A stretch of 64,000 nucleotides of DNA, from NCBI GenBank assembly GCA_046563655.1, contig CM102283.1, forward strand, positions 4,960,001 to 5,024,000, given 5' to 3'. The notes under the pieces were generated by a model, which was given only the letters and a program-made list of their open reading frames with translations, did not search any database and was not told the origin of the DNA. The DNA comes from Yuukianura sp. NJ FZ-2021. Its lineage: Eukaryota. Positions within the stretch are counted from its first letter, which is position 1, and every line of letters starts with the position of its first letter. Shown here one piece after another: positions 3,001 through 61,869 of the stretch. The translations under genes and the position numbers were made by a program.

Positions 3001-6000
3001 AACAGGAATAGTTTCGCTTGTGTTTCAAGTTGAAATTAGGTATGCTTTGGAACAGCTATTTTATTAAAACCTGCTTGCATTTGGACAAAGAGTAAAGTGG
3101 ATTTTTCTTCAAAATTTCTGAGTGCGACCTTTAGATTCTAAAGCTATGCTGACACCATCTAATTCCACTCTAACCCTATTTTACAATGGTGTTTGATGTG
3201 CCAACAGGAATAGTTTCGCTTGTGTTTCAAGTTGAAATTAGATATGCTTTGGAACAACTATTTTATTAAAACCTGCTTGCATTTGGACAAAGAGTAAAGT
3301 GGATTTTTCTTCAAAATTTCTGAGTACGACCTTTAGATTCTAAGGCTATGCTGACACCATCTAATTCCACTCTAACGCTATTCTACAATGGTGTTTGATG
3401 TGCCAACAGGAATAGTTTCGCTTGTGTTTCAAGTTGAAATTAGATATGCTTTGGAACAACTATTTTATTAAAACCTGCTTGCATTTGGACAAAGAGTAAA
3501 GGGGATTTTTCTTCAAAATTTATGAGTGCGACCTTTAGATTCTAAGGCTATGCTGACACCATCCAATTCCACTCTAACGCTATTCTACAATGGTGTTTGA
3601 TGTGCCAACTTTTAGTCGAAGAACAGTTTCGCTTTTGTTTCGAGTTGAAATTAGATATGCTTTGGAACAGCTATTTTATTAAAACCCGCTTGCATTTGGA
3701 CAAAGAGTAAAGGGGATTTTTCTTCAAAATTTATGAGTGCGACCTTTAGATTCTAAGGCTATGCTGACACCATCTAATTCCACTCTAACGCTACTCTACA
3801 ATGGTGTTTGATGTGCCAAATTTTAGTTTAGGAATAGTTTCGCTTTTGTTTCAAGTTGAAATTAAGTATGCTTTGGAACAGCTATTTTATTAAAACCTGC
3901 TTGCATTTGGACAAAGAGTAAAGTGGATTTTTCTTCAAAATTTCTGAGTCCGACCTGAGTGTTTGATGTGCCAACAGGAATAGTTTCGCTTGTGTTTCAA
4001 GTTGAAATTAGATATGCTTTGGAACAGCTATTTTATTAAAACCCGCTTGCATTTGGACAAAGAGTAAAGTGGATTTTTCTTCAAAATTTCTGAATGCGAC
4101 CTTTAGATTCTAAGGCTATACTGACACCATCTAATTCCACTCTAACCCTATTTTACAATGGTGTTTGATGTGCCAACAGGAATAGTTTCGCTTGTGTTTC
4201 AAGTTGAAATTAGATATGCTTTGGAACAACTATTTTATTAAAACCTGCTTGCATTTGGACAAAGAGTAAAGGGGATTTTTCTTCAAAATTTCTGAGTGCG
4301 ACCTTTAGATTCTAAGGCTATGCTGACACCATACAATTCCACTCTAACGCTATTCTACAATGGTGTTTGATGTGCCAACTTTTAGTCGAAGAACAGTTTC
4401 GCTTTTGTTTCAAGTTGAAATTAGATATGCTTTGGAACAGCTATTTTATTAAAACCCGCTTGCATTTGGACAAAGAGTAAAGGGGATTTTTCTTCAAAAT
4501 TTATGAGTGCGACCTTTAGATTCTAAGGCTATGCTGACACCATCTAATTCCACTCTAACGCTATTCTACAATGGTGTTTGATGTGCCAAATTTTAGTCTA
4601 GGAATAGTTTCGCTTTTGTTTCAAGTTGAAATTAGATATGCTTTGGAACAGCTATTTTATTAAAACCTGCTTGCATTTGGACAAAGAGTAAAGTGGATTT
4701 TTACTCAAAATTTCTGATTGCGACCTTTAGATTCTAAGGCTATACTGACACCATCTAATTCCACTCTAACCCTATTTTACAATGGTGTTTGATGTGCCAA
4801 CAGGAATAGTTTCGCTTGTGTTTCAAGTTGAAATTAGATATGCTTTGGAACAGCTATTTTATTAAAACCTGCTTGCATTTGGACAAAGAGTAAAGTGGAT
4901 TTTTCTTCAAAATTTCTGAGTGCGACCTTTAGATTCTAAGGCTATGCTGACACCATCTAATTCCACTCTAACGCTATTCTACAATGGTGTTTGATGTGCC
5001 AACAGGAATAGTTTCGCTTGTGTTTCAAGTTGAAATTAGATATGCTTTGGAACAGCTATTTTATTAAAACCCGCTTGCATTTGGACAAAGAGTAAAGGGG
5101 ATTTTTCTTCAAAATTTATGAGTGCGACCTTTAGATTCTAAGGCTATGCTGACACCATCTAATTCCACTCTAACGCTATTCTACAATGGTGTTTGATGTG
5201 CCAACAGGAATAGTTTCGCTTGTGTTTCAAGTTGAAATTAGATATGCTTTGGAACAACTATTTTATTAAAACCTGCTTGCATTTGGACAAAGAGTAAAGT
5301 GGATTTTTCTTCAAAATTTCTGAGTGCGACCTTTAGATTCTAAGGCTATGCTGACACCATCTAATTCCACTCTAACGCCATTTTACAATGGTGTTTGATG
5401 TGCCAACTTTTAGTCGAGGAATAGTTTCGCTTGTGTTTCAAGTTGAAATTAGATATGCTTTGGAACAGCTATTTTATTAAAACCCGCTTGCATTTGGACA
5501 AAGAGTAAAGTGGATTTTTCTTCAAAATTTATGAGTGCGACCTTTAGATTCTAAGGCTATGCTGACACCATCTAATTCCACTCTAACGCTATTCTACAAT
5601 GGTGTTTGATGTGCCAAATTTTAGTCTAGGAATAGTTTCGCTGTTGTTTCAAGTTGAAATTAGATATGCTTTGGAACAGCTATTTTATTAAAACCTGCTT
5701 GCATTTGGACAAAGAGTAAAGTGGATTTTTCTTCAAAATTTCTGAGTGCGACCTTTAGATTCTAAGGCTATGCTGACACCATCTAATTCCACTCTAACGC
5801 TATTCTACAATGGTGTTTGATGTGCCAACAGGAATAGTTTCGCTTGTGTTTCAAGTTGAAATTAGATATGCTTTGGAACAGCTATTTTATTAAAACCTGC
5901 TTGCATTTGGACAAAGAGTAAAGTGGATTTTTCTTCAAAATTTCTGAGTGCGACCTTTAGATTCTAAGGCTATGCTGACACCATCTAATTCCACTCTAAC

Positions 6001-9000
6001 GCTATTCTACAATGGTGTTTGATGTGCCAACAGGAATAGTTTCGCTTGTGTTTCAAGTTGAAATTAGATATGCTTTGGAACAGCTATTTTATTAAAACCC
6101 GCTTGCATTTGGACAAAGAGTAAAGTGGATTTTTCTTCAAAATTTCTGAGTGCGACCTTTAGATTCTAAGGCTATGCTGACACCATCTAATTCCACTCTA
6201 ACGCTATTCTACAATGGTGTTTGATGTGCCAACAGGAATAGTTTCGCTTGTGTTTCAAGTTGAAATTAGATATGCTTTGGAACAACTATTTTATTAAAAC
6301 CTGCTTGCATTTGGACAAAGAGTAAAGTGGATTTTTCTTCAAAATTTCTGAGTGCGACCTTTAGATTCTAAGGCTATGCTGACACCATCTAATTCCACTC
6401 TAACGCTATTTTACAATGGTGTTTGATGTGCCAACAGGAATAGTTTCGCTTGTGTTTCAAGTTGAAATTAGATATGCTTTGGAACAGCTATTTTATTAAA
6501 ACCTGCTTGCATTTGGACAAAGAGTAAAGTGGATTTTTCTTCAAAATTTCTGAGTGCGACCTTTAGATTCTAAGGCTATGCTGACACCATCTAATTCCAC
6601 TCTAACGCTATTCTACAATGGTGTTTGATGTGCCAACTTTTACTCTAGGAATAGTTTCGCTTGTGTTTCAAGTTGAAATTAGATATGCTTTGGAACAGCT
6701 ATTTTATTAAAACCCGCTTGCATTTGGACAAAGAGTAAAGGGGATTTTTCTTCAAAATTTATGAGTGCGACCTTTAGATTCTAAGGCTATGCTGACACCA
6801 TCTAATTCCACTCTAACGCTATTCTACAATGGTGTTTGATGTGCCAACTTTTACTCTAGGAATAGTTTCGCTTGTGTTTCAAGTTGAAATTAGATATGCT
6901 TTGGAACAGCTATTTTATTAAAACCCGCTTGCATTTGGACAAAGAGTAAAGTGGATTTTTCTTCAAAATTTATGAGTGCGACCTTTAGATTCTAAGGCTA
7001 TGCTGACACCATCTAATTCCACTCTAACGCTATTCTACAATGGTGTTTGATGTGCCAACAGGAATAGTTTCGCTTGTGTTTCAAGTTGAAATTAGATATG
7101 CTTTGGAACAGCTATTTTATTAAAACCTGCTTGCATTTGGACAAAGAGTAAAGTGGATTTTTCTTCAAAATTTCTGAGTGCGACCTTTAGATTCTAAGGC
7201 TATACTGACACCATCTAATTCCACTCTAACGCTATTTTACAATGGTGTTTGATGTGCCAACAGGAATAGTTTCGCTTGTGTTTCAAGTTGAAATTAGATA
7301 TGCTTTGGAACAGCTATTTTATTAAAACCTGCTTGCATTTGGACAAAGAGTAAAGTGGATTTTTCTTCAAAATTTCTGAGTGCGACCTTTAGATTCTAAG
7401 GCTATGCTGACACCATCTAATTCCACTCTAACGCTATTCTACAATGGTGTTTGATGTGCCAACAGGAATAGTTTCGCTTGTGTTTCAAGTTGAAATTAGA
7501 TATGCTTTGGAACAACTATTTTATTAAAACCTGCTTGCATTTGGACAAAGAGTAAAGTGGATTTTTCTTCAAAATTTCTGAGTGCGACCTTTAGATTCTA
7601 AGGCTATGCTGACACCATCTAATTCCACTCTAACGCTATTCTACAATGGTGTTTGATGTGCCAACAGGAATAGTTTCGCTTGTGTTTCAAGTTGAAATTA
7701 GATATGCTTTGGAACAACTATTTTATTAAAACCTGCTTGCATTTGGACAAAGAGTAAAGTGGATTTTTCTTCAAAATTTATGAGTGCGACCTTTAGATTC
7801 TAAGGCTATGCTGACACCATCTAATTCCACTCTAACGCTATTCTACAATGGTGTTTGATGTGCCAACTAGGAATAGTTTCGCTTGTGTTTCAAGTTGAAA
7901 TTAGATATGCTTTGGAACAACTATTTTATTAAAACCTGCTTGCATTTGGACAAAGAGTAAAGTGGATTTTTCTTCAAAATTTCTGAGTGCGACCTTTAGA
8001 TTCTAAGGCTATGCTGACACCATCTAATTCCACTCTAACGCTATTCTACAATGGTGTTTGATGTGCCAACAGGAATAGTTTCGCTTGTGTTTCAAGTTGA
8101 AATTAGATATGCTTTGGAACAGCTATTTTATTAAAACCCGCTTGCATTTGGACAAAGAGTAAAGGGGATTTTTCTTCAAAATTTATGAGTGCGACCTTTA
8201 GATTCTAAGGCTATGCTGACACCATCTAATTCCACTCTAACGCTATTCTACAATGGTGTTTGATGTGCCAACAGGAATAGTTTCGCTTGTGTTTCAAGTT
8301 GAAATTAGATATGCTTTGGAACAGCTATTTTATTAAAACCTGCTTGCATTTGGACAAAGAGTAAAGTGGATTTTTCTTCAAAATTTCTGAGTGCGACCTT
8401 TAGATTCTAAGGCTATGCTGACACCATCTAATTCCACTCTAACGCTATTCTACAATGGTGTTTGATGTGCCAACAGGAATAGTTTCGCTTGTGTTTCAAG
8501 TTGAAATTAGATATGCTTTGGAACAGCTATTTTATTAAAACCTGCTTGCATTTGGACAAAGAGTAAAGTGGATTTTTCTTCAAAATTTCTGAGTGCGACC
8601 TTTAGATTCTAAGGCTATGCTGACACCATCTAATTCCACTCTAACGCTATTCTACAATGGTGTTTGATGTGCCAACAGGAATAGTTTCGCTTGTGTTTCA
8701 AGTTGAAATTAGATATGCTTTGGAACAACTATTTTATTAAAACCTGCTTGCATTTGGACAAAGAGTAAAGGGGATTTTTCTTCAAAATTTCTGAGTGCGA
8801 CCTTTAGATTCTAAGGCTATGCTGACACCATCCAATTCCACTCTAACGCTATTCTACAATGGTGTTTGATGTGCCAACTTTTAGTCGAAGAACAGTTTCG
8901 CTTTTGTTTCGAGTTGAAATTAGATATGCTTTGGAACAGCTATTTTATTAAAACCCGCTTGCATTTGGACAAAGAGTAAAGTGGATTTTTCTTCAAAATT

Positions 9001-44598: not shown

Positions 44599-46958
44599 TT
44601 ATAATATGAATAACTCGTAAAGATCTTTTCCTGAGGGTAAGGTTCCCAAGATTGAGCAGGAGTTTCCGCGTTGAACAGCTAGGCTTATTCGTTGTAGGAA
44701 GAAGGTCGTGGCTCGCTTATCTCCAGATGCTTCTGACAGCCGATGTCCGATTTGTTTTAGTAGACGAAGACCTTCGGATCCGAATACACCTGATGTCTCG
44801 ACGGCAATGATGGATACCACGAAGCGAGATTCTAGGTCACGATAGAGATGATGTTTGTGTGTCTCTGCTAATTCGGCTGCATGACCATAGCGGGAAGACG
44901 ATGTCGAAAGGTAGGAATTTGCATAAGTGTCACGGCAGGTAAAGTCCCGGCAGAGGCAGCGTCCTGAGCTCCAAGGAATGAGAGTAACACCATCTGGCCG
45001 TTTGCCATCGGATCTGCTGCAGCCGACAGGTTCTTTAATTGAAGGAAATCCAGCGGTTTGTAATGCTCTGAAGATTATGTCGTTGACTGAGTTGTGACGC
45101 GAGTGTCTTCCGGCGCTACGCTTACAGCTTAAACCGTGGAGACCGTTACTTGACACCGGAGCACCGCACGAGCAGATATGAGGTTGGCATATATCAGTTC
45201 CTAGGCGAAGAGCACAAGAAATCCTAAAAGATTCGTCCGAAAGTAGAGTTCCAAGTTCTCCGGAGGGAATTGCGTGTAACCAATCTCCAGAATGTGGTGC
45301 AGCGGCAGCCAGTAGTCTTGCTTTGTCGATAAGGGTTGAAAAGTTCTGAACTAGGGAAGAAGAAATTTGCTTAAAGACTTGAATTTCCCAGAGGTTTTGA
45401 GATTTTTCGTCCTGTGGAATAACGAAGCCCAATTGAGACCAGTTGAACAAAGCCAAATCCATTGAATTGTCGAAGGGTGACAGGGAAGACGGCAGAAATG
45501 TAGAAATTAGCTCCGCACAACTATGGACTGATGCCAAAAACGAAAATGTAGCGCAGTCCTTAGCGTGGCAAACTCCTAATCCGCCCAAGTTCACCGGCAG
45601 ACTTGACTGAGACCAAGCGTGTAAAGACAAAGTAGAGTTGAGAATTGATTCCATCACTGCACGTAGCGCACAGTCGTATGCTTCGAGAAGATCGGTTTCC
45701 AAAAATGATGGAGCACATCGGAGGAAATATAGTAGTCTTGGGGTGGAAATTGAAGCTCGAAGCAGGTAGAACGCGATGTGGGCTGGTAATTCCGACAACT
45801 TGGATGAGAGTGACTTGAAGTACTCTGTTTTGCATTTGAGAATCCGACGAGTCGATTCTTTGAAAAGAGGCGCTCCTAGAAGTTCAGCTTGATCAGATTC
45901 AGGAAAGATGATGTCTGGAGAAACAGATTGGAATGATTGGACGATTGATCGGGATTCATCTGCGTCTGCGTTTAGGATGATGACTTCACATTTCCTTAGG
46001 TTGAGTTCTAGTCCAAACGAAGAGGCTTCTCTTTGGATGTACTTTAGATTTTCTAGAACGACATCCGGAGTATCGGCAATCGTTGCGTCGTCCAAATACC
46101 AGATGTTGAAATCAGTGGTTAAAGTAGAGGCCAGTTGGTGGATTGTTAAAGCGAAAAGAGCAGGACCAAGGGGATCCCCTGCTGCACTCCTAGTTTCGAT
46201 TTGATGCAAGCAGAGTCGTAGTAGAGATCTGAGTCGTGCGAATAAGCTTCAGAGACGAATTTGTAGAAGTCTGGAAGTATGGTCTTCACAATATCCAGCA
46301 TACGGTCTCTTCTAATTAAGTTGAAGGCATTGCGAAAGTCCATCTTGAGTAGAACCTTGGCAGAACCATGGTTGGCATTACAGAAGATTCTGGCAGCGTG
46401 GGCGACGGCTTCAGCACCATTCTTGATTCCAACGCCAACTTGGATCGGGCTTAAGGTTGAAGTAATGACATTCAACGAGTGAGATAGGATAAGTTTAGAC
46501 ACGAGGCGTCTCCAAGTAAGGCCGATTGCGATAGGACGAATGCCTCCTTTCTTCTTTTGGATTGCTAATAGAGTTGCGCCAAAAAAAATTCGTCTCACTT
46601 CATCGGGAAGAGAACCATTTGTAATGAAGTTACACAATCCAGAAACTGATGCTAGAAGAGCTGCTCCTTCATCGCCTGAGGACTTTGAAGTTAGTTCCTT
46701 TAGAATCTGTGGACGAAAAGAGTCCAGGCCTCCGGCGGATCCATTTGGGAATGACGAGATGGCTTTGATGACGTAACAGTTTTCAAAGATAACCTCAGAT
46801 CTCGGAGGTGCGGCAGGAAACGAGGTTGGTAGTGGATGATCGGGATGCAATTGGTGGAGAATGTTCAAAGTATCAGAGTCTTTGGAGGCTATGCAATCTT
46901 CGGAGACCAGGATTCGAACTGCACCGCGTATATCCCCGTCGGCTAGTTTAACCTCTTT
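44599..46958 (-). pseudogene. RT + zinc-knuckle/RLE coding region of the CRE-like element, N-terminally truncated, with one frameshift
   Basis: RT motifs: GIRPIAIGLTWRRLVSK, KMDFRNAFN, GVQQG|DPLGPALF, WYLDD. C-terminal motifs: CSC..H..C knuckle, RHN, KEP, RPDG, DFT, AE..K (PD-(D/E)xK-type). The two ORF-track ORFs join if one G is added to the G-run (CCCC at 46176-46179 on +). The first 9 aa of ORF 46146..46985 come from the satellite. Confidence 0.9.
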
Positions 46959-48271
46959 ACATTTGTCTAGTTTGAGGATCTTCAAGTGGTTTTTTGAAAC
47001 CAGTGTTGTTGAAAATATTTTTCAACTAAGGTCTGATTGAATCCTGAGGAACGGAATTGTGCCAAGATAGCAATTTTAATTTGACGCTATGGAGACAGAC
47101 TACAAAAATAGGGACATTTGTCTAGTTTGAGGATCTTCAAGTGGTTTTTTGAAACCAGTGTTGTTGAAAATATTTTTCAACTCAGAAACCAGTGTTGTTG
47201 AAAATATTTTTCAACTAAGGTCTGATTGAATCCTGAGGAACGGAATTGTGCCAAGATAGCAATTTTAATTTGACGCTATGGAGACAGACTACAAAAATAG
47301 GGACATTTGTCTAGTTTGAGGATCTTCAAGTGGTGTTTTGAAACCAGTGTTGTTGAAAATATTTTTCAACTAAGGTCTGATATTCAATCCTGATGAACGG
47401 AATTGTACCAAGATAGCAATTTTAATTTGACGCTATGGAGACAGACTACAAAAATAGGGACATTTGTCTAGTTTGAGGATCTTCAAGTGGTTTTTCGAAA
47501 CCAGTGTTGTTGAAAATATTTTTCAACTAAGGTCTAACGTCTGATTGAATCCTGAGGAACGGAATTGTGCCAAGATAGCAATTTTAATTTGACGCTATGG
47601 AGACAGACTACAAAAATAGGGACATTTGTCTAGTTTGAGGATCTTCAAGTGGTTTTTTGAAACCAGTGTTGTTGAAAATATTTTTCAACTAAGGTCTGAA
47701 ATTCAATCCTGAGGAACGGAATTGTACCAAGATAGCAATTTTAATTTGACGCTATGGAGACAGACTACAAAAATAGGGACATTTGTCTAGTTTGAGGATC
47801 TTCAAGTGGTTTTTCGAAACCAGTGTTGTTGAAAATATTTTTCAACTAAGGTCTGATTGAATCCTGAGGAACGGAATTGTGCCAAGATAGCAATTTTAAT
47901 TTGACGCTATGGATACAGACTACAAAAGTAGGGACATTTGTCTAGTTTGAAGATCTTCAAGTGGTTTTTTGAAACCAGTGTTGTTGAAAATATTTTTCAA
48001 CTAAGGTCTGAAATTCAATCCTGAGGAACGGAATTGTGCCAAGATAGCAATTTTAATTTGACGCTATGGATACAGACTACAAAAATAGGGACATTTGTCT
48101 AGTTTGAAGATCTTCAAGTGGTTTTTTGAAACCAGTGTTGTTGAAAATATTTTTCAACTAAGGTCTGATTGAATCCTGAGGAACGGAATTGTGCCAAGAT
48201 AGCAATTTTAATTTGACGCTATGGATACAGACTACAAAAATAGGGACTTTTTCTAATTTGAGGATCTTCAA

Positions 48272-49120: not shown

Positions 49121-52100
49121 ATCATGAAATGGAAGAATTCTATCCGCTGAGCTTGTTGGTTTCTATTGCGTGATATTTTGTACTAGTTGGTCTCCATCGT
49201 GAATTTGTAAAATGTTTTGTAGTGTTCATAAGTTTTAGAGGCTGGTTCAGAGGATTCGGTTTTTACAGAGCGGTCTGCATAACGTCAAATTTTAAAATGT
49301 TCCGTATGCCTCCTAACGTCGCCTTGAAGTATCACATTTCGTGTTAGAAATATTTCTTGCTACACCATGGTTTCTAAAAACCATGCCCGAAATCATGAAA
49401 TGGAAGAATTCTACCCGCTGAACTAGTTGGTTTCTATTGCGTGATATTTTGTACTAGTTGGTCTCCATCGTGAATTTGTAAAATGTTTTAGAGTGTTCAT
49501 ATGTTTTAGAGGCTGGTTCAGAGGATTCGGTTTTTACAGAGCGGTTAGCATAACGTCAAATTTTAAAATGTTCCGTATACCTCCTAATGTAGCCTTGAAG
49601 TATCACATTTCGTGTTAGAAATATTTCTTGCTACACCATGGTTTCTAAAAACCATGCCCGAAATCATGAAATGGAAGAATTCTGCCCGCTGAACTAGTTG
49701 GTCTCTTTTGCGTGATATTTTGTACTAGTTGGTCTCCATCGTGAATTTGTAAAATGTTTTAGAGTGTTCATATGTTTTAGAAGCTGGTTCAGAGGATTCG
49801 GTTTTTACAGAGCGGTCTGCATAACGTCAAATTTTAAAATGTTCCGTATACCTCCTAATGTAGTCTTGAAGTATCACATTTCGTGTTAGAAATATTTCTT
49901 GCTACACCATGGTTTCTAAAAACCATGCCGGAAATCATGAAATAGAAGAATTCTACCCGCTGAACTAGTTGGTCTCTATTGCGTGACGTTTTGTACTAGT
50001 TGGTCTCCGTCGTGAATTTGTAAAATGTTTTGTAGTGTTCAGAAGCTTTAGAGGCTGGTTCAGAGGATTGGGTTTTTACTGAGCGTTCTGATGACGTCAA
50101 AATCTAAATGTTCCGTATGCCTCCTAATGTCGCCTTAAAGTGTCACATTTCGTGTTAGAAAGATTTGTTGCTACACCATGGTTTCTAAAAACCATGCCCG
50201 AAATCATGAAATGGAAGAATTCTACCCGCTGAACTAGTTGGTTTCTATTGCGTGATATTTTGTACTAGTTGGTCTCCATCGTGAATTTGTAAAATGTTTT
50301 AGGGTGCTCATATGTTTTAGAGGCTGGTTCAGAGGATTCAGTTTTTACAGAGCGGTTAGCATAACGTCAAATTTTAAAATGTTCCGTATACCTCCTAATG
50401 TCGCCTTGAAGTATCACATTTCGTGTTAGAAAGATTTCTTGGTACACCCTGGTTTCTAAAAACCATGCCCGAAATCATGAAATGGAATAATTCTACCCGC
50501 TGAGCTAGTTGGTCTCTATTGCGTGAAATTTTGTACTAGTTGGTTTCCGTCGTGAATTTGTAGAATGTTTTGTAGTGTTCATAAGTTTTAGAGGCTGTTT
50601 CAGAGGATTGGGGATTTACTGAGCGTTCTGATAACATCAAAATCTAAATGTTCCGTATGCCTCCTAATGTCGCCTTGAAGTATCACATTTCGTGTTAGAA
50701 ATATTTTTTGCTACACCATGGTTTCTAAAAACCATGCCGGAAATCATGAAATGGAAGAATTCTATCCGCTGAGCTAGTTGGTCTCTATTGCGTGAAATTT
50801 TGTACTAGTTGGTCTCCATCGTGAATTTGTAAAATGTTTTGTAGTGTTCATAAGTTTTAGAGGCTGGTTCAGAGGATTCGGTTTTTAGTGAGCGTTCTGA
50901 TGACGTCAAAATCTAAATGTTCCGTATGCCTCCTAATGTCGCCTTAAAGTGTCACATTTCGTGTTAGAAAGATTTGTTGCTACACCATGGTTTCTAAAAA
51001 CCATGCCCGAAATCATGAAATGGAAGAATTCTACCCGCTGAACTAGTTGGTTTCTATTGCGTGATATTTTGTACTAGTTGGTCTCCATCGTGAATTTGTA
51101 AAATGTTTTAGAGTGCTCATATGTTTTAGAGGCTGGTTCAGAGGATTCAGTTTTTACAGAGCGGTTAGCATAACGTCAAATTTTAAAATGTTCCGTATAC
51201 CTCCTAATGTCGCCTTGAAGTATCACATTTCGTCTTAGAAAGATTTCTTGGTACACCCTGGTTTCTAAAAACCATGCCCGAAATCATGAAATGGAATAAT
51301 TCTACCCGCTGAGCTAGTTGGTCTCTATTGCGTGAAATTTTGTACTAGTTGGTTTCCGTCGTGAATTTGTAGAATGTTTTGTAGTGTTCATAAGTTTTAG
51401 AGGCTGGTTCAGAGGATTCAGTTTTTACAGAGCGGTTAGCATAACGTCAAATTTTAAAATGTTCCGTATACCTCCTAATGTCGCCTTGAAGTATCACATT
51501 TCGTCTTAGAAAGATTTCTTGCTACACCATGCTTTCTAAAAACCATGCCGGAAATCATGAAATGGAAGAATTCTATGCGCTGAGCTAGTTGTTCTCTATA
51601 GCGTGAAATTTTGTACTAGTTGGTTTCCATCGTGAATTTGTAGAATGTTTTGTAGTGTTCATAAGTTTTAGAGGCTGTTTCAGAGGATTGGGGATTTACT
51701 GAGCGTTCTGATAACGTCAAAATCTAAATGTTCCGTATGCCTCCTAATGTCGCCTTGAAGTATCACATTTCGTGTTAGAAAGATTTCTTGGTACACCCTG
51801 GTTTCTAAAAACCATGCCCGAAATCATGAAATGGAATAATTCTACCCGCTGAGCTAGTTGGTCTCTATTGCGTGAAATTTTGTACTAGTTGGTTTCCGTC
51901 GTGAATTTGTAGAATGTTTTGTAGTGTTCATAAGTTTTAGAGGCTGTTTCAGAGGATTGGGGATTTACTGAGCGTTCTGATAACATCAAAATCTAAATGT
52001 TCCGTATGCCTCCTAATGTCGCCTTGAAGTATCACATTTCGTGTTAGAAATATTTTTTGCTACACCATGGTTTCTAAAAACCATGCCGGAAATCATGAAA

Positions 52101-52317
52101 TGGAATAATTCTATCCGCTGAGCTAGTTGGTCTCTATCGCGTGAAATTTTGTACTAGTTGGTCTCCATCGTGAATTTGTAAAATGTTTTGTAGTGTTCAT
52201 AAGTTTTAGAGGCTGGTTCAGAGGAGTGGGTTTTTACAGAGCGGTCTGCATAACGTCAAATTTTAAAATGTTCCGTATACCTCCTAATGTAGGCTTGATG
52301 TCTCACATTTCGTGTTA
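49121..52317 (+). repeat. Tandem satellite 3, 271/269-bp monomer (~12 copies, more diverged)
   Basis: ATCATGAAAT recurs at 49121, 49392, 49663, 49934, 50203. Each monomer has an internal ~30-bp duplication (ACTAGTTGGT...CGTGA..TTTGT twice) and the inverted repeat CATGGTTT-CTAA-AAACCATG. Confidence 0.95.
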
Positions 52318-52685: not shown

Positions 52686-52736
52686 ACCCACCACAGTCCA
52701 ATCGATCAGTCCATTTAGCAGTGTTTGAGAACCTAA

Positions 52737-53012
52737 GTGAAATTTACGGCTGACTTATCATACTTTACGGCGAAAGCTATGTAGCGGGAAATTTACGGCG
52801 AATCTATCATACTTTACGTCCAAAGCTATAGAGCGGGAAATTTACGACTGATTCATACTTTACGGCAATTGTCGTAAAGTGCAAGGAATCAGCCGTAAAT
52901 GCCCTACTTTACCGCAATAGTCGTAAAGTGCAATGAATCATCCGTAAATGCACCACTTTTGCGCAATTGTCCTAAAGAGCAATGACTCAGCGGTAAAGGC
53001 CCCACTTTACTG
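52737..53012. mobile_element. Fold-back MITE-like element, copy 1
   Basis: ~49-bp subrepeats containing TTTACGGCTGA are followed by ~50-bp subrepeats containing the inverse TCAGCCGTAAA. Ends CCCCACTTTACTG, like copy 2. Confidence 0.55.
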
Positions 53013-53119
53013 GATTCACCTTACTTCACGCCTATTTCCGCAAAATGGAAATTATAATGCTGAAACACCTCTTTGCTTTGTATCAAGTTACAACGCAAAC
53101 GAAAGGCCAAGTAGCCATA

Positions 53120-53309
53120 CAGTGTGAAATTTACGGCTGATTTATCATACTTTACGGCCAAAGCTATAAAGCGGGAAATTTACGGCTGAATCATACTTTA
53201 CGGCAATAGTCGTAAAGTGCAAATGCTCAGACGTAAATGCCCCACTTTCGCGCAACAGTCGTAAAGAGCAATGACTCAGCGGTAAAGGCCCTAGGGCCCC
53301 ACTTTACTG
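53120..53309. mobile_element. Fold-back MITE-like element, copy 2 (Tc1/mariner-like CAGT..ACTG ends)
   Basis: TA|CAGTGTGAAATTTACGGCTGA ... CCACTTTACTG|TG. Same subrepeats as copy 1 but fewer units. The right flank is TG rather than TA, so the superfamily is uncertain. Confidence 0.55.
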
Positions 53310-54153: not shown

Positions 54154-54652
54154 TTTAGTCTTCTGGAGACGCACGTCTACGACGTGCTGAAGAAGACTAT
54201 TGATACGACTTTGTCCGTCCGTCCGTCACACTTTTTAGGACTTTTTGCACTGAAACATTAGCCCCATTATTGACCGGGGGTTCTGTATCGCTCAAGTGTT
54301 TTCATTATGTCTACATTCCACTCAAAGTGTTATCTTAACAACGTAGAAGTGGGCGGCTACTTTACGTACCCGCAGTATCGTGGCTCCGCAATGCTGTTTT
54401 GGTTTCGATTGCACTCAAAGTATTTATAAACAACGGAGTTTTGATCTGGTCATTTTCTGGCAGTATGTTTAATTACGTTGTTAAATTAAGACTGATCAGA
54501 GGGTAGAAAATCCGGCTTAAATGTTTAATATGTGAATGGTGCACAACAGGGGTCAAAGTTGCATTTACTAGAAATTTTTATAATTTCGATTTTCACAAGC
54601 GATATCCGACCCCTCGAGCCAGCGTTAACGACCATATGATCAACAGGGATAC

Positions 54653-55057
54653 TGTTAGGAAAAACATAACGTCAACTTTTCTTAAAAGTTCATTTGAGTT
54701 CACATGCTAATTATCTGTCTTTTCGTTAAAGTTCATTTTCTGCAGAACAAAAGACATTTTCCTTTTGTTAGAGATCTAAAATTAGAAGTCTAATTTACTC
54801 ATGCTAATTTGGAGTTACTCGTAACTCCTCGTTTCCGTTTTGATGTTTCTTTCTGACCGTATAAATACGGCCAGCACCCAGCCCAATACATCCATTCTTT
54901 TCCTTCCAGTCTTTCTGGAACATTCCCTACTTGTAAGGCCTCACTGCGAGGTCAAGGACTTAGTGTCCTTGTCCCTATTGTATTGAATAAAGACAATAAC
55001 TTCATTCTTATTGCAAACTTGCAAAGTCGTCTACGGAGTTACATTCATTTCAGTACA
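54653..55057 (+). repeat. 5' LTR
   Basis: Direct repeat of 60968-61372 (6 mismatches counted by eye). TATAAATA at 54860-54867 and AATAAA at 54986-54991. Confidence 0.96.
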
Positions 55058-55059
55058 TT

Positions 55060-55077
55060 TGGTGGTACGAGCTGCTG
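55060..55077 (+). promoter_or_regulatory. Putative tRNA primer-binding site
   Basis: TGGTGGTACGAG... begins 2 nt after the 5' LTR; TGG is complementary to the tRNA CCA end. The cognate tRNA was not identified. Confidence 0.6.
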
Positions 55078-55083
55078 AAACCG

Positions 55084-55959
55084 ATGGCTTCCACAGGAAG
55101 TGATAATGCTCAACCTATGACCTCTGGGTCAACGCATGCGTTGCCCAGAGTGAATGACCTTAAGGCGGTGGTCCGTTCCGTGCCTCTATTTGACGGCAAG
55201 ACGAACGTAGATCTGTTGACCCTGAGGTTGGATGCACTATTGGCATCAGGTGCTCTGGACAGCGTCACGCTGATCCTGAACTTCCATCAATTGATGGAAG
55301 GTGAAGCACAAGAATGGTGGCGCTGGTCACAGGCCAAGTTCATCCGTGACTTGACCTTGGCCAATGCAGCCACAAGGTGGACAGAGCTCAAAGCTGAGCT
55401 TCGATCTTTTTATGACCCCGATGAGGTCAAATTAGAAATGAAGAAAAAATTAAAGGGCATTATACTTGCTAACTGCGACACTCCTTCTGAGTATGTCGCC
55501 AAGCGACTGTCATGTCTGTCGGTCATTGACCCCGACATGTCAGCCGAAAAGCAAGTTGAGAAATTGATTAAGGGTTTACCAGTTTCCATGAGAAACATGA
55601 TGACCCTTGTTGACCCTAAATCGCCTGCTGAATTTTTGCAAAAATTAAGAAAATGTGAAAAACCTACGTTCCATGACAGACGAGGGCAATTTCAAAATGC
55701 AAATTCCAGTAGTTCCAGTTCAGGAACACAAAAATTGAAGTCCAGTGACGGAAAGGAAACACCTTCAACGTCAGATACTGATTTGAATAAAAATTCAAAT
55801 CAACATTTCAAAAAACGAAAATACTGCACATTTTGTAAAAAGCCCGGTCATACATTGGATGACTGTTGGCACAAAAACAAAACCAAATCGGGAAGTGCTT
55901 CTTTCTCCTCAGCAGTTTTACCCGAGGAACAAACTGAGGAGACAAACACAAAAAACTAA
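55084..55959 (+). CDS. gag: Gag (291 aa): capsid-like region plus CCHC zinc knuckle
   Basis: VPLFDG, MEGEAQEWW, LIKGL capsid-like motifs; CTFCKKPGHTLDDC knuckle; position right after the PBS. Confidence 0.92.
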   Translation: MASTGSDNAQPMTSGSTHALPRVNDLKAVVRSVPLFDGKTNVDLLTLRLDALLASGALDSVTLILNFHQLMEGEAQEWWRWSQAKFIRDLTLANAATRWTELKAELRSFYDPDEVKLEMKKKLKGIILANCDTPSEYVAKRLSCLSVIDPDMSAEKQVEKLIKGLPVSMRNMMTLVDPKSPAEFLQKLRKCEKPTFHDRRGQFQNANSSSSSSGTQKLKSSDGKETPSTSDTDLNKNSNQHFKKRKYCTFCKKPGHTLDDCWHKNKTKSGSASFSSAVLPEEQTEETNTKN

Positions 55960-56002
55960 TTGTCACGGGTGATTACGCACACCCTAATTTAAAAACAGCG
56001 TA
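55950..56002 (+). promoter_or_regulatory. -1 programmed ribosomal frameshift signal (gag-pol)
   Basis: Slippery heptamer A AAA AAC (55950-55956) sits immediately before the gag stop, and the -1 frame is open into pol. Possible H-type pseudoknot: GGGTG/CACCC (55967-55971/55980-55984) and TACGC/GCGTA (55974-55978/55998-56002). Confidence 0.8.
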
Positions 56003-59000
56003 TAATTACAGTTTACAAAAAGTAAACAAACCTAAAATAGTTCAAAATACACTAATATTTGAAAATTCAAATTTTTCAAAAAATCAAAATCAATCCAGTA
56101 CTAGCGAAAGTTACGCTAGTAAAGTTAAACAAAATTTAAATAAAGTCAATTATTTTACGGAATCAGTTCCGGAAACCTCTGTAGAGGGCACTAAAGTGCA
56201 AGTGCCGTTCAGAAAATGGCGGTACGGTCCAAAACTTTTTACCGAACTTACGTTCGGTGACAAAACTTTCAAAATTCAAGTTGATGAAGGAGCTAACTTT
56301 AGCAGCATCGGCTTGGACTTTCTGAATGACCTTCAAGGTCAAATTCACAAACGATACAAAATTCCACCTGTCATAGTCAATACTGCCAACAGCCAAACAA
56401 GCATAGATGAAATGGTTGAATTGAAGTTCCACTTCAACGATGTACTCACAATTTGGGGATTTCACGTAATGAAGGGACTCAAGCCAAAAATGCTACTTGG
56501 GACTGATTGGACAACAAGAGACTTGAATAAACAGGAATTCACAAATATCGATGATGAAATACCAATTACTAATTGTCCTAAAAATGAGGAAAAATCGCAA
56601 CCAAATAAATTTAAACTGACAAAAACAGTACGGCTTCAAGCCAGAATGACCTCCAAGGTCGCTGTAAAGTCAGATAAAATTATTTCTGGTTCAATTATTA
56701 TGAATCCCAACATGACACTTTATGAGACACATGCCTTACTTCAACCTCATGTCTATTCAATTGTCAGGGATCATGAAACCGAATTATGGATCACAAATTT
56801 AAATGATTTTGAAGTGACCTTGAACAAAGGCACGACAATTGCATATGGCGAAATTTGTCCACCAAAGAAAAACATTTATGTATTCACTGAAGATGGCGAC
56901 ACCATCGATTCAGGGGAACAAACTTTTGGAAATTTCGATCCAAAACTAGGAGACAATTTGTCCAATGAACAGAAAAATGAAATGAGAAATTTAATAAATC
57001 AATTTCCAATGCTATTTGCGGAAGATGAGACCGAATTAGGGAAAACAAGCCTTGTTCGTCATCAAATTGACACGGGCACAAATCCTCCAATTAGGAATTA
57101 CCCCTATCGAGTTTCTTATCCACAAAGAAGCAAAATTAAGGAAAAAATAAATAAGCTTCTTGAAAGTGACATTATTGAAGAGTCAATTTCTCCTTGGTCA
57201 TCTCCAGTAATACTCGTTCCTAAAAAGGACGGAAGTTCAAGACTGGTGATTGACTATAGAAAATTAAATGCAATTACTAAGAAAAACTCTTATCCATTGC
57301 CTAGAATGGACGATGCATTGGATAGACTGTCAGGTGCCAAGTACTTTACTGTACTAGATTTGCTATCTGGGTTCTACCAAATCGAGTTAGACCCAAAAGA
57401 CAAAGAAAAAACGGCATTTATAACTCCTGACGGCCTGTACCAATTTAAGAGACTGCCTATGGGACTCTGTAATGCTCCATCTAGTTTCCAATATTTAATG
57501 GATTTGGTTTTATTAAACTTGAAATGGAACATTGTACTCGTTTACTTGGATGACCTTGTTGTTTGGGGAAGGACTTTTGAAGAGCACAATTCTAGACTCT
57601 TCACTGTTTTAAACCGACTCAAAGAAGCGGGACTAACCCTAAAAATCAGTAAATGTGTTTTTGGAACAAATAAACTTAATTACTTGGGCCACATAATATC
57701 TGAAGATGGAATTCAAGTAGATCCGAATAAAACAATTGCAATTGACAATTTTCCAATTCCAAAAAACCAGACCGACATTAAATCATTCTTAGGAATGTGC
57801 GGTTATTATAGACGATTTATTCAAAATTTTGGCAAAATTGCAATTCCTCTCACCCTTTTGACAAGAAAGAATCAAAAATTTGACTGGGGTGAAAAACAAA
57901 ATGAATCCTTTCAAAAACTAAAAGCATGTTTGGTCAAAAGTCCAATTTTGTCATATCCAATGGACAATGTCCCAACGGAAGTGCACTGTGATAGCAGTGG
58001 GTATGGAATCGGGGCAACCCTGGTCCAAATCCAAAATGGAAAACCCTGCGTCATAGCTTACGCTAGCCGAAGTATGACAGAAGCGGAACGAAAATATTCA
58101 GGACCCGAACAAGAATGTCTAGCAGTAGTCTTTTCTGTCAAAAAGTTTAGGCCATACATTTATGGAACCAAATATACAGTGTACACTGATCACTATGCCC
58201 TAAAATGGTTGTTTTCCATTAAAGATGTCAACAGTAGGCTGGCTAGATGGTCAATTACACTGCAAAATCAGGACATGACTATTGTACATAGACCAGGGAA
58301 AACTGCGAATGACGTTGACCCCTTGTCACGTTACCCAGTTGACCCACCAGAGAGCATGGACAGCTCTGAAGTTCTTGTTTTGGATGGCGTTCCTGACTTG
58401 TTTACAATAAACGAATTAAAAGTCAAACAGAGATCTGATCATTTTCTAAAATCCATCATTTTGTTCATTGAGTCTGAGGAAAATGGAGAGTACAATATAC
58501 CTCAACCTAATGTAAAACAATTACAAGACTATAGTTTGCAAAATGGCATTTTATTATTTCCAAATTTTGCACCCTCTGGCAACCAATGGAAAATTGTTCT
58601 TCCAAAATGCTTAAGAAAAGCTGTTCTAGATTCTCTGCATTCTGGAGATTTAGCAGGACATTTTGGAATTACCAAAACTTGGGAGTTAGTCCGAAGTAGG
58701 TTCCATTGGAAAGGAATGTACAAGGATACTAGAAAATATATCCTAGGGTGTGAAGTTTGCCAAAAATTTAGAAAACGAATTGGACCCGACTATAGCTTAA
58801 TGCAAAGCTTTAGCGATGTCACAAAGCCATTCGAAAGAGTAGGCATTGACTGGATTGGGCCCTTCACAAAATCCAAAAATGGCAACAAATATGCTATTGT
58901 TTTCATTGACCACTTCACCCGATACTCAGAAACTGTTGCCGCACCAAGTGCGACAGCAGAAGAGGTGGTAAAAGCCATTAAATCTAAAATTATTTACACT

Positions 59001-60236
59001 CACTCTCTTCCAAAAGAATTTGTGGTTGATAGAGGAAGGCATTTCACTGCAAATTTAGTAAAAGCTGCAGCAGAAGAATTTGGCTTTAAGCTAAAATTCA
59101 CAGCCCCCTACAATCCTCAAGCCAATGGAATGACTGAAAGATGCAACAAGACTCTTAAGAAAATTATTGCCAAAACTGTTGATGAAAACCAGAAAAATTG
59201 GGATTTATGCTTAGAGGAAGCGACATTTGCATATAACATTAAGAAGCATTCATCAACTGATTTTTCTCCATTTTATTTGGTTTTTGGTCGAGAAGCAGTT
59301 TTACCAATTGATTTACAGCTTCCTAATTTTGACTCTGACCAAGAACTAGATTTTGAGGAATTAGAGTACAATAGACACAAAGCTCAATTAAAATCTAATG
59401 AAAATCATCAAAAGTCAAAAATTAGAGTTAATGAGAACCGACATGAACATGATTTTCAAGTGGGCGAACTTGTTTTAAGATCAAAGCCAATTAAAAAGAA
59501 AGGTCTTTCCAAAGCATTTATTGCACAAAAGGATGGGCCATACAAAATCTTAAAACAAACCAGTCCTGTGAATTATGAAATTAAAAAACTAAATAGCAAG
59601 TCAAAAAAGCTAATTGTTCATGTTAAGGACTTAGAACATTTTAATTCTGAATTTGTGCCCAGCTCTGACAGTGATAGTGAAAGTGAAAGTAGCGTCACTG
59701 ATCAGAAGTGTAAAATTAACCAAAACAAACAAAAAGGTGATTCCCCTGCTATAAGCCCAGTAAAGAGGGAGAGGGAGAAGCCAGTGCAAAAGAGTACACA
59801 CTCCACTCACTCTATTCCCCCATCTCATTCTTCACAGTCAGCTGTAACTGACAACAAAAGTCAGAATTCAAAAATAAGCAAATACAGTTCAAATAGGGAA
59901 ATTAGTAGTGGTCACCGTTCCTTGTCCAACAGACAAATTAGTTCGAATGACTCTAGGTCATTGGCACGCCGTGTGCAAAATTCTGCTCCAGAAAGTGACA
60001 GTGACTGTGACAATGTGAGTGACCTCGAGGTTATAAATACCTCTGCCGACGAAAGACGACATGTCAGTTCATCGTCATCTTCGGAAGAAGAAGGAAGTCC
60101 AGCCTGGAACCCTCCAAAGGTCAACTCCACTCCAAAGGTCATCTCTGTTCCGCCAAAGGTCACCGAGCCCGCCAGAAAGTCAACTCGCCAAAGGAAAGTC
60201 CCTGACAGATTCGGAGCCTGGGTCACTGACTACTAG
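55953..60236 (+). CDS. pol: Pol polyprotein (protease, RT, RNase H, integrase, long Ser-rich tail), translated as a Gag-Pol fusion
   Basis: Protease VDEGANFSSI; RT SPWSSPVILVPKK, LPMGLCNAP, YLDD; RNase H CDSSGYGIGA, YTDH; integrase HHCC, GIDWIG / VDRG / ERCN and GPY. The ORF-track start (GTG at 56196) is internal to the open -1 frame. Confidence 0.95.
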   Translation, partial: KLIVTGDYAHPNLKTAYNYSLQKVNKPKIVQNTLIFENSNFSKNQNQSSTSESYASKVKQNLNKVNYFTESVPETSVEGTKVQVPFRKWRYGPKLFTELTFGDKTFKIQVDEGANFSSIGLDFLNDLQGQIHKRYKIPPVIVNTANSQTSIDEMVELKFHFNDVLTIWGFHVMKGLKPKMLLGTDWTTRDLNKQEFTNIDDEIPITNCPKNEEKSQPNKFKLTKTVRLQARMTSKVAVKSDKIISGSIIMNPNMTLYETHALLQPHVYSIVRDHETELWITNLNDFEVTLNKGTTIAYGEICPPKKNIYVFTEDGDTIDSGEQTFGNFDPKLGDNLSNEQKNEMRNLINQFPMLFAEDETELGKTSLVRHQIDTGTNPPIRNYPYRVSYPQRSKIKEKINKLLESDIIEESISPWSSPVILVPKKDGSSRLVIDYRKLNAITKKNSYPLPRMDDALDRLSGAKYFTVLDLLSGFYQIELDPKDKEKTAFITPDGLYQFKRLPMGLCNAPSSFQYLMDLVLLNLKWNIVLVYLDDLVVWGRTFEEHNSRLFTVLNRLKEAGLTLKISKCVFGTNKLNYLGHIISEDGIQVDPNKTIAIDNFPIPKNQTDIKSFLGMCGYYRRFIQNFGKIAIPLTLLTRKNQKFDWGEKQNESFQKLKACLVKSPILSYPMDNVPTEVHCDSSGYGIGATLVQIQNGKPCVIAYASRSMTEAERKYSGPEQECLAVVFSVKKFRPYIYGTKYTVYTDHYALKWLFSIKDVNSRLARWSITLQNQDMTIVHRPGKTANDVDPLSRYPVDPPESMDSSEVLVLDGVPDLFTINELKVKQRSDHFLKSIILFIESEENGEYNIPQPNVKQLQDYSLQNGILLFPNFAPSGNQWKIVLPKCLRKAVLDSLHSGDLAGHFGITKTWELVRSRFHWKGMYKDTRKYILGCEVCQKFRKRIGPDYSLMQSFSDVTKPFERVGIDWIGPFTKSKNGNKYAIVFIDHFTRYSETVAAPSATAEEVVKAIKSKIIYTHSLPKEFVVDRGRHFTANLVKAAAEEFGFKLKFTAPYNPQANGMTERCNKTLKKIIAKTVDENQKNWDLCLEEATFAYNIKKHSSTDFSPFYLVFGREAVLPIDLQLPNFDSDQELDFEELEYNRHKAQLKSNENHQKSKIRVNENRHEHDFQVGELVLRSKPIKKKGLSKAFIAQKDGPYKILKQTSPVNYEIKKLNSKSKKLIVHVKDLEHFNSEFVPSSDSDSESESSVTDQKCKINQNKQKGDSPAISPVKREREKPVQKSTHSTHSIPPSHSSQSAVTDNKSQNSKISKYSSNREISSGHRSLSNRQISSNDSRSLARRVQNSAPESDSDCDNVSDLEVINTSADERRHVSSSSSSEEEGSPAWNPPKVNSTPKVISVPPKVTEPARKSTRQRKVPDRFGAWVTDY

Positions 60237-60237
60237 A

Positions 60238-60956
60238 ATGGACATGGAACAGGAAGAACAACTATTGAACATGGATGAAGACTTGGGTAAGTCTAAATGT
60301 CCAGCTTTTCATGAAAGGTCATGAAAGGTCATTGTTTTTGTTCTATTCGTTGTGACATTTCGTGTAATGTCACGGCAATGTTCAGTCATTGCCCCACTAC
60401 GTCTACACTTTTCAAAATTTCTAATATTTCTTTTATTTTTTCAGATTCTCTCCAGCCGATGTCTCCAGTCTCACTCAACACTACTTCATCTACGATTCCG
60501 ATGCCGTCTACGTCAAAACCGCCAACCGTTCCGACTCTAATCAACTGTAATCCACCGGATGGAAGAATGGATTTCTCGAAATGGCGTATCCCTAAAAGAC
60601 CGATGACGGACGGGGAGTCACAGACTGTGAGACAACCGAGTAGAGCGGAGAAACGGCCATTCAACTTTGCCAGAATGTCAACGGCCTTGCCGCCGCGGGA
60701 ACGTCCCCCAAAACACAACAATTCATCAACTTCTAACCAATCCTCGTCACCTTCAACTTCTGGAGATTCTCCAATTCTGGTCCTGAGCAACGTTGGTCAG
60801 CTCAAAGCTGCTGTGGAGTCAATGACCCATCATCGACCTCGACCCAGACGATGCTTCACTTGTCAACGTGTTGGACACAGAGCAAAACACTGCTTCGTAC
60901 GTCGACCCCGTCAAGTTCCACGTAACCCAGATGCTCCAGGAGAAACATCCATTTAA
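60238..60956 (+). CDS. Predicted two-exon accessory ORF3 of the Gypsy element (exon 1 60238-60286, intron 60287-60444, exon 2 60445-60956; 186 aa, C-terminal CCHC knuckle)
   Basis: ATG 1 nt after the pol stop; donor G|GTAAGT; branch-like TTCTAAT plus polypyrimidine tract and TTTCAG| acceptor. The phase-1 join is in frame (MDMEQEEQLLNMDEDL-D-SLQPMSP...). Contains CFTCQRVGHRAKHC and stops at the PPT. Confidence 0.7.
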
Positions 60957-60967
60957 GGTGGTAGGAA
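60955..60967 (+). promoter_or_regulatory. Polypurine tract
   Basis: AAGGTGGTAGGAA directly before the 3' LTR. Confidence 0.75.
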
Positions 60968-61372
60968 TGTTAGGAAAAACATAACGTCAACTTTTCTTAA
61001 AAGTTCATTTGAGTTCACATGCTAATTATCTGTCTTTTCGTTAAAGTTCATTTTCTGCAGAACAAAAGACATTTTCCTTTTGTTAGAGATCTAAAATTAG
61101 AAGTCTAATTTACTCATGCTAATTTGGAGTTACTCGTAACTCCTCGTTTCCGTTTTGATGTTTCTTTCTGACCGTATAAATACGGCCAGCACCCAGCCTA
61201 GAACATTCATTCTTTTCCTTCCAGTCTTTCTGGAACATTCCCTACTTGTAAGGCCTCACAGCGAGGTCAAGGACTTAGTGTCCTTATCCCTATTGTATTG
61301 AATAAAGACAATAACTTCATTCTTATTGCAAACTTGCAAAGTCGTCTACGGAGTTACATTCATTTCAGTACA
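60968..61372 (+). repeat. 3' LTR
   Basis: Direct repeat of 54653-55057, followed by TSD ATAC. Confidence 0.96.
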
Positions 61373-61869
61373 ATACATAAACGTTGAGTTGTGCATTCAC
61401 ATGAACCAATTATGATTTAAAAGAAAGGATATTCGACTCATCCTCCTCAGCGTTCAATTTTGTGCATGATGCACAAAGCTAAATTTCGATATCAGTATTT
61501 TGACGCCGTTTGGTTCACGCTGTTTTCGCTAATAAGTACATTGCCACGGCAACACCGATAATACATTATGTGCATCCTGCTCAACAAATTAAGAACATCA
61601 ATTTAGTGCAAATATTTTGGGGCGCAAAACTGGAACATGATTTTATTGCATTTAAATGCCATTGGCAACCCAGTTTTGGTGTAACGCATGTACAAAATAG
61701 GACCTCACATCCGCGCTGAAAATTTTGAGCGACGTTTTGGTACATACGCTACATCAAAACGGTTTCTCAGTACTTCTACAGTTTTGAGGCAGGCCGGCTT
61801 AAGTCGCATCAATTGTCAACTCCCTCCAGAAGACCTATGCTCAACCCTTGAGCATTGCCCTACCTTGTT

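Follow-up and report, generated by a model that had tools for sequence, protein, structure and literature searches.

A complete and young Ty3/gypsy LTR retrotransposon in the window (the whole 64-kb stretch of DNA analysed here) carries, between pol and its 3′ LTR, a third open reading frame (ORF3) that ends in a CCHC zinc knuckle. Comparison with related elements indicates that ORF3 is a real accessory gene, encoding a knuckle protein rather than an envelope (env), and a shared derived trait of one gypsy clade. The splice acceptors found just ahead of ORF3 in the relatives strongly suggest that it is expressed by way of splicing, and our best guess at its function, held with less certainty than the mode of expression, is that of an RNA-binding accessory protein. 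Taken as a whole, a clade-defining accessory gene that would be read from a spliced subgenomic mRNA and would play a post-transcriptional, RNA-binding role is in our judgement the best explanation, and a reasonably probable one. Accessory ORF3s of LTR retrotransposons are a known kind of gene; what appears to be new is a knuckle-encoding ORF after pol across a pol clade, together with the acceptors that precede it in the relatives.

Element architecture and ORF3 in the window

The element lies at positions 54653 to 61372 of the window, and its LTRs have TG...CA ends (Table 1). Across gag and pol, Pfam domains follow in the order Retrotrans_gag, RVT_1, RT_RNaseH, Integrase_H2C2, rve and Integrase_p58_C. 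The pol frame encodes 1346 aa and opens 22 nt 5′ of the gag stop. Slippery heptamers for –1 frameshifting take the form X XXY YYZ, and on this basis the A AAA AAC in the gag/pol overlap is likely to be the frameshift site that gives access to pol. An overlap of gag and pol with pol in the –1 frame was also seen in all six relatives whose frames were read (L002, L004, L006, L008, L009 and L010). The nearest relatives of pol in the database share 35–45% identity, the nearest named one being an uncharacterised Daphnia magna protein (35%). There is no second copy of the element within the 64-kb window. A search for closer relatives of the family gave none in viral_contigs and seven pattern matches in genome_contigs, none of which was confirmed; an Rfam scan of the window gave no matches.

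Table 1. Features of the gypsy element, with their positions in the window
Feature	Position	Strand	Remarks
Target-site duplication ATAC	54649–54652 (5′ copy), 61373–61376 (3′ copy)	+	
5′ LTR, 405 bp	54653–55057	+	TATA-like box near 54860 and AATAAA near 54990, read from the sequence
Candidate leader splice donor ctt/GTAAGG	54933–54938	+	Inside the LTR, 3′ of the TATA-like box; use putative
Primer-binding-site-like stretch	55060–55077	+	Begins TGG, 2 nt past the 5′ LTR
gag, 291 aa	55084–55959	+	Retrotrans_gag domain and one CCHC knuckle
Alternative candidate donor gaa/GTGATA	55100–55105	+	After gag codon 5; phase 1, the phase of the 60444 acceptor; weak, use putative
pol frame (PR-RT-RNase H-integrase)	55938–60236	+	–1 relative to gag; stop TAG at 60234–60236
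Heptamer A AAA AAC	55950–55956	+	In the gag/pol overlap, gag frame, directly before the gag stop
ORF3 exon 1	60238–60286	+	ATG, 15 further codons and 1 nt; acidic; EE.LL-type motif
Putative intron, 158 nt	60287–60444	+	GTAAGT, TTCTAAT branch-like site at 60419–60425, T-rich tract, CAG
ORF3 exon 2	60445–60956	+	S/T/P-rich, predicted disordered, basic C-terminus; TAA at 60954–60956
CX2CX4HX4C zinc knuckle of ORF3	60852–60893	+	
Polypurine tract	60955–60967	+	Abuts the 3′ LTR
3′ LTR	60968–61372	+	6 mismatches relative to the 5′ LTR

Repeats and a further retroelement-like region lie elsewhere in the window. Just 5′ of the element are a tandem array of about eight units of 269–271 bp (50000–52294) and a small second array with 49-bp spacing (52726–53289). 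On the minus strand, positions 44599–47021 hold a pair of long ORFs, of 549 and 291 aa, that overlap each other and by eye resemble the reverse transcriptase of a non-LTR retrotransposon.

ORF3 had been predicted from the sequence alone as an acidic exon, an intron-like segment and a second exon closing in a knuckle, and every one of these features was recovered where it had been placed. The gene takes up all of the sequence between the pol stop and the polypurine tract: its ATG lies one base past the stop, and its own stop codon overlaps the tract. Exon 1 (49 nt, i.e. 16 codons and 1 nt) encodes seven acidic residues. Exon 2 is phase-compatible with it and is read in the same frame as pol. 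Joined in frame, the two exons give a conceptual product of 186 aa, of which 44% is S, T, P or R and which has a single CCHC knuckle. Left unspliced, the frame of the ORF3 ATG reaches a stop after 28 aa. The three frames of the putative intron hold 3, 3 and 1 stops, and its GC content is 34%, against 50% in exon 2.

The two ends of the putative intron are the best-scoring splice sites of the element. The G/GTAAGT donor at 60287 is the sole GTAAGT in the 7.2-kb element stretch and ranks first of its 354 GTs, while the acceptor, a CAG ending at 60444 that follows the branch-like site and a pyrimidine tract, ranks first of 425 AGs; the simple donor score and the simple pyrimidine-tract score used here were home-made and are not trained splice models. 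Standing 158 nt apart in the correct order and phase, the pair is stronger than expected by chance. A fusion of pol to ORF3 through a GTGAGT at 60015 was also considered and was rejected, as that donor ends in phase 0 and would miss the knuckle frame of exon 2.

An intron at this position is found in the window copy only and is absent from all relatives. The internal intron is best regarded as a plausible, copy-specific feature whose splicing is putative. Because exon 1 supplies the acidic N-terminus and the EE.LL-type motif that relatives carry in an uninterrupted ORF, the comparison nonetheless supports a two-exon model; with the head and motif in exon 1 and the remainder of the protein in exon 2, joining the exons would restore the family architecture.

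Distribution and conservation of ORF3 among relatives

Metagenome contigs were scanned with a four-sequence pol alignment. This matched 592 stretches, 392 of which encode relatives, and the best 80 were retained, so that our survey of the sequence downstream of pol comprises 81 rows (80 loci and the window). A CCHC pattern was found no more than 1.8 kb past the pol stop in 15 of the 81 rows. In 13 of these it closes an ORF of 97–213 aa beginning at or just after the pol stop, and these 13 ORF3 elements are the window element, L001, L002, L003, L004, L006, L007, L009, L010, L021, L035, L048 and L061. All of them have a knuckle of their own in gag, upstream of pol. Wherever LTRs can be recognised (L002, L006, L010 and L048), ORF3 sits between pol and the 3′ LTR. 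The downstream knuckle of L071 was rejected as an ORF3, since it belongs to the gag-protease region of a neighbouring element; L070, which has a CCHC downstream of pol and falls outside the clade described below, was not counted among the 13.

A pol tree was built with FastTree from pol positions 251–1120 of 77 of the 81 rows, with L059, L060, L062 and L065 left out on account of low coverage. The 13 ORF3 elements are all contained in a single 20-tip clade (SH-like support 0.994), and a knuckle ORF after pol was found in none of the 20 loci outside this clade that have at least 600 nt of sequence downstream. Among the remaining tips of the clade, L008, L014 and L022 show a pyrimidine tract, an AG and an ATG just before the contig ends, and in L008 and L022 the N-terminal sequence of ORF3 can additionally be matched. 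L013 has nothing recognisable in its 196 nt downstream of pol, and the contigs of L005, L012 and L015 extend at most 51 nt beyond it.

The original prediction had proposed that a reverse transcriptase phylogeny be used to place the family, and that relatives be examined for conservation of the frame and of the splice sites. The pol tree does group the ORF3 elements, and the ORF3 frame is open across the 13 elements, but the splice sites of the internal intron are found in no relative. For the three closest pairs of ORF3s, pN is 0.34–0.44 and pS is 0.75–0.77; as synonymous sites are saturated, these values are given as such rather than as a dN/dS ratio. The ORF3 proteins have thus changed far less than silent sites while their frames were kept open, and on these comparisons ORF3 appears to be under selection.

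L035 (1–7538) contains the end of one element, with the end of pol and an ORF3 at 1575–2111, followed by a second related pol at 4816–7533. In L048 and L061 pol is broken into several frames; ORF3 is intact in L048 and split over three frames in L061.

Splice sites and the expression of ORF3

The most consistent signal near ORF3 in the relatives is an acceptor ahead of its start codon. For 6 of the 11 relatives scored (L002, L003, L004, L006, L007 and L009), the best AG of the entire contig is found 0–4 nt 5′ of the ORF3 start codon. The acceptor preceding ORF3 in the remaining five ranks 4/745, 8/349, 15/505, 12/567 and 8/520, which places it within the top 0.5–3%. L001, which is among the four nearest relatives, has no AG or acceptor near the ORF3 ATG. 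For the window copy, the AG directly before the ATG at 60238 is a weak acceptor (rank 110/425), because pol extends right up to the ATG, and the top-ranked acceptor at 60444 lies 207 nt further 3′. The ORF3 of L010 (L010:5564–6052) opens right at a strong acceptor AG and has not a single Met, which means that an exon further 5′ has to supply the start codon; two candidate donors of L010, one after gag codon 2 and the other after codon 4, are in phase with this ORF3.

Donor evidence is less clear than acceptor evidence. The best donor candidate in the leader ranks 1/306 in L004, 3/404 in L006, 5/323 in L009, 6/353 in L008, 8/490 in L002, 11/354 in the window (at 54933), 20/684 in L061, 26/467 in L010 and 39/492 in L007, and is unimpressive in L007, L010, L061 and the window. 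L048 has a GTAAGT 59 nt past its 5′ LTR. In L008 a tiny intron-like unit stands 3′ of the primer-binding site and 5′ of the gag ATG, at about 187–235; it consists of tag/GTAAAT, about 45 nt, a T-rich tract and CAG, and may be a leader intron or may provide the donor for the ORF3 mRNA.

A conserved acceptor combined with the lack of an obvious conserved donor is the pattern described for the env gene of errantiviruses, which is expressed from a spliced subgenomic mRNA (according to the portion of PMC13669377 available to us), and by this analogy we infer a spliced subgenomic mRNA for ORF3. With the acceptor before the ATG as the main signal in the relatives, ORF3 is probably expressed through a long-range subgenomic splice, and the short intron of the window copy is probably an extra feature rather than the control point. 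The original interpretation is borne out in part: a gene distinct from env is upheld, and splice-dependent expression is suggested by the strong acceptors before ORF3 in relatives and by the top-ranked sites of the putative intron, but the internal intron does not hold up as the control point.

Other readings of ORF3 were weighed against this one. By far the least probable, and in our view very improbable, is that it is a chance open stretch between pol and the LTR with a fortuitous knuckle pattern. Searches with the single protein did find only knuckle-repeat matches, and its Pfam score falls below the cut-off. Against this, 13 diverged elements keep an ORF after pol that ends in a knuckle despite saturated synonymous sites, the feature is confined to one clade, and the knuckle is modelled by AlphaFold2 with a pLDDT of about 91; the position of the relatives' ORFs between pol and the 3′ LTR also argues against their being gag genes of neighbouring elements. 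Some more credence, though still little, is due to the idea that the gene is real in the clade and dead in the window copy, the 158-nt segment being an insertion or a decayed stretch that breaks ORF3. It would fit with the uninterrupted state of every relative at the corresponding place and with a 10-nt tandem duplication inside the segment, and L061 shows that decay of ORF3 can occur. However, the segment is flanked by the top-ranked donor and acceptor, contains a branch-like site and can be removed exactly in frame. It is also not repeated elsewhere in the window, and the element around it looks intact, with gag and pol open and LTRs differing at 6 of 405 positions.

The most serious competitor, which we nevertheless consider unlikely, takes 60444 itself as the subgenomic acceptor of the window copy, joined directly from the donor at 54933 or 55100, with exon 1 skipped or used as an alternative. 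Translation would in that case begin with the first gag codons, or at a Met located 14 nt inside exon 2, and the product would have no acidic head. Among 425 acceptors 60444 ranks best, like the pre-ORF3 acceptors of 6 of the 11 scored relatives, and the ATG at 60238 is preceded by a weak AG. Exon 2 matches the donor that follows gag codon 5 in being phase 1; moreover, the Met-less ORF3 of L010, with its in-phase candidate donors after gag codons 2 and 4, offers a parallel, as does the Cer1 protein CERV, which has its N-terminus in common with GAG in the part of its description available to us (PMC10309623). On the other hand, relatives have an acidic head of EE.LL type which in the window copy can come from exon 1 only, the single best donor of the element stands exactly at the end of exon 1 and in phase, and the GTGATA at 55100 makes a poor donor.

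In the explanation that we favour, ORF3 is a clade-defining gene whose subgenomic mRNA would arise by splicing from a 5′-leader donor, or from one within the first gag codons, to the strong acceptor just before ORF3, and unspliced RNA would continue to serve as genome and gag-pol mRNA. Under exon definition, a strong downstream donor can compensate for a weak acceptor. In the window copy, the very strong donor at 60287 would similarly help to define the 49-nt exon 1, offsetting the weak acceptor upstream of it, and removal of the intron would unite the acidic head with the knuckle-bearing body of the protein.

The ORF3 protein, its possible role and known systems

Across the clade, ORF3 proteins share a layout consisting of an acidic head, a short EE.LL-type motif, a variable S/T/P-rich linker and a basic C-terminus with one or two CCHC knuckles. 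Net charge over the first 40 residues is –7 to –13 in 10 of 12 ORF3 proteins (L001 and L010 being the exceptions) and over the last 50 residues is +2 to +15 in all 12. The CX2CX4HX4C spacing of the window knuckle is found in all 13 ORF3s. The Cys and His columns are the only invariant ones in the alignment, which leaves shared architecture and the short motif as the basis for homology beyond the knuckle. Against zf-CCHC (PF00098) the window knuckle scores 17.6 bits, below the gathering cut-off of 20.8; among the ORF3s of five relatives, those of L001 (25.6) and L009 (21.6) pass, those of L006 (16.5) and L035 (18.4) fall below and that of L007 gives no match.

The protein had been described at the outset as distinct from env, and this view stands: none of the 12 ORF3 proteins contains a transmembrane helix, the highest Kyte-Doolittle mean over 19 aa being 0.81 in the window ORF3 and at most 0.92 across the 12, and the sole Pfam match is zf-CCHC. 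Errantivirus env, by comparison, is a membrane fusion glycoprotein that has a signal peptide and is held in the membrane by a transmembrane anchor. Structure prediction, one of the checks suggested in the original prediction, gives a confident knuckle and mostly coil elsewhere. The AlphaFold2 model of exon 2, made with a 12-row alignment, has a mean pLDDT of 64 and is mostly low-confidence coil, with one helix (residues 116–126) and confident knuckle blocks at pLDDT 91–92; apart from the short helix and the knuckle, the protein is thus predicted to be mostly disordered.

The best matches of the ORF3 knuckle among solved structures are HIV-1 NC and Lin28, both weak (E 0.02–0.04), and the nearest ESM Atlas clusters are retroviral knuckle proteins (best score 0.85, to be taken as a lead only). 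With exon 2 as a single query, no match near full length was obtained, and an exhaustive HMMER search gave six matches, all by way of knuckle repeats. A profile search with ORF3 returned only the ORF3s of L010 and L035, both from contigs already in the dataset.

The combination of a disordered acidic-basic dipole, an NC-type knuckle and a splice acceptor is read most economically as an RNA-binding protein with a post-transcriptional role. We propose that ORF3 would bind the element's own RNA through its Arg-rich knuckle region and act after transcription, either as an NC-like chaperone or as an adaptor for the export or packaging of unspliced RNA. A more specific version would make the clade a group of 'complex' retroelements, with ORF3 as a Rev- or CERV-like regulator that is made only from spliced RNA and binds unspliced genomic RNA, its acidic head recruiting export or packaging machinery. 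If this were true, splicing and the amount of protein would be linked in a feedback loop that switches between regulatory and genomic RNA, and the window intron would add a second splicing-dependent gate. This version is conceivable, yet we think it rather doubtful. Leucine-rich nuclear export signals fall into classes that can be written as regular expressions, and in a crude test these matched 6 of 12 ORF3 N-termini, with 6.3 expected from shuffled sequences; there is thus no enrichment, and the test lends the export reading no support.

We compared ORF3 with known systems as they are described in the portions of the cited papers available to us. The closest in concept is the CERV protein of Cer1, a Ty3/gypsy element of C. 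elegans. CERV is made from a spliced mRNA, has a Cys-rich, putatively zinc-binding region and is needed to export the unspliced genomic RNA (PMC10309623). Both are accessory proteins of gypsy-type elements with a Cys-rich region, spliced in the case of CERV (PMC10309623) and putatively so in that of ORF3. CERV, with 517 aa encoded by five exons, overlaps with the gag region and has the same N-terminus as GAG, and its H, M and G domains are folded and accompanied by a C4-type loop (PMC10309623). The ORF3 protein, compared with it by description only, is 186 aa long, is encoded 3′ of pol, is predicted to be disordered and bears a CCHC knuckle. Errantivirus env likewise follows pol as the third ORF, ahead of the 3′ LTR, and has a well-conserved acceptor just upstream (PMC13669377); ORF3 differs from it as a knuckle protein devoid of signal peptide, transmembrane helix and glycoprotein domain. 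LTR retrotransposons of bdelloid rotifers have non-env ORF3s of GDSL esterase, DEDDy exonuclease, coiled-coil and transmembrane types, and the authors of that study note that ORF3s are typically expressed from spliced messages (PMC5408684). These are lineage-specific non-env genes like the window ORF3, but encode enzymes or membrane proteins, and the terms 'zinc' and 'CCHC' do not occur in the main text of the paper (PMC5408684). The nucleocapsids of retroviruses and retrotransposons (PF00098) have the same CX2CX4HX4C knuckle in a basic setting; ORF3, in contrast, is a separate gene after pol rather than the C-terminus of Gag, with an acidic head and no capsid domain, in an element whose gag keeps a knuckle of its own. 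The plant element Ogre is cited as an intron-bearing LTR retrotransposon spliced in part of its transcripts (PMC3735527) and resembles the window element in retaining a sense-strand intron, the splicing of which is putative in the latter. The Ogre splice falls between the main ORFs and the window intron inside an accessory gene, and the two belong to unrelated lineages, one of plants and the other apparently of animal type.

Our literature search, within the portions of the papers available to us, turned up no gypsy element described as having a CCHC ORF3; Repbase, GyDB and paper supplements lay outside its scope and may hold such a description. A 2026 survey of gypsy elements with env likewise uses neither 'zinc' nor 'CCHC' (PMC13524379), and in the accessible part of Llorens et al. 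additional genes among Ty3/gypsy elements are mentioned only for the Tat clade and fungal chromoviruses (PMC2774666).

A small accessory protein conserved in a deep gypsy clade, behind a conserved acceptor, would be a second case alongside CERV and unrelated to it. To our knowledge, animal-type LTR retrotransposons seldom carry accessory genes besides env, and these are little understood, Cer1 CERV being the one case studied functionally. Conservation of both ORF3 and its acceptor would suggest repeated origins, outside retroviruses, of regulated splicing coupled to an RNA-binding regulator, and interest would be greater still if the Rev- or CERV-like reading were confirmed. At about 100–200 aa, ORF3 is compact and easily tested. 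A knuckle-ending ORF after pol can also serve as an annotation marker for a clade that gene callers now miss (two called proteins were found).

The C-terminal region of ORF3 varies in its Cys-rich content within the clade. Two CCHC knuckles are present in the ORF3s of L001, L003 and L010. A second Cys-rich tail of CX2C...CX2C type follows the knuckle in L004 (5936–6412), L006 (5958–6446), L007 (6726–7367) and L061 (7920–8483), and the ORF3s with this tail have no second CCHC.
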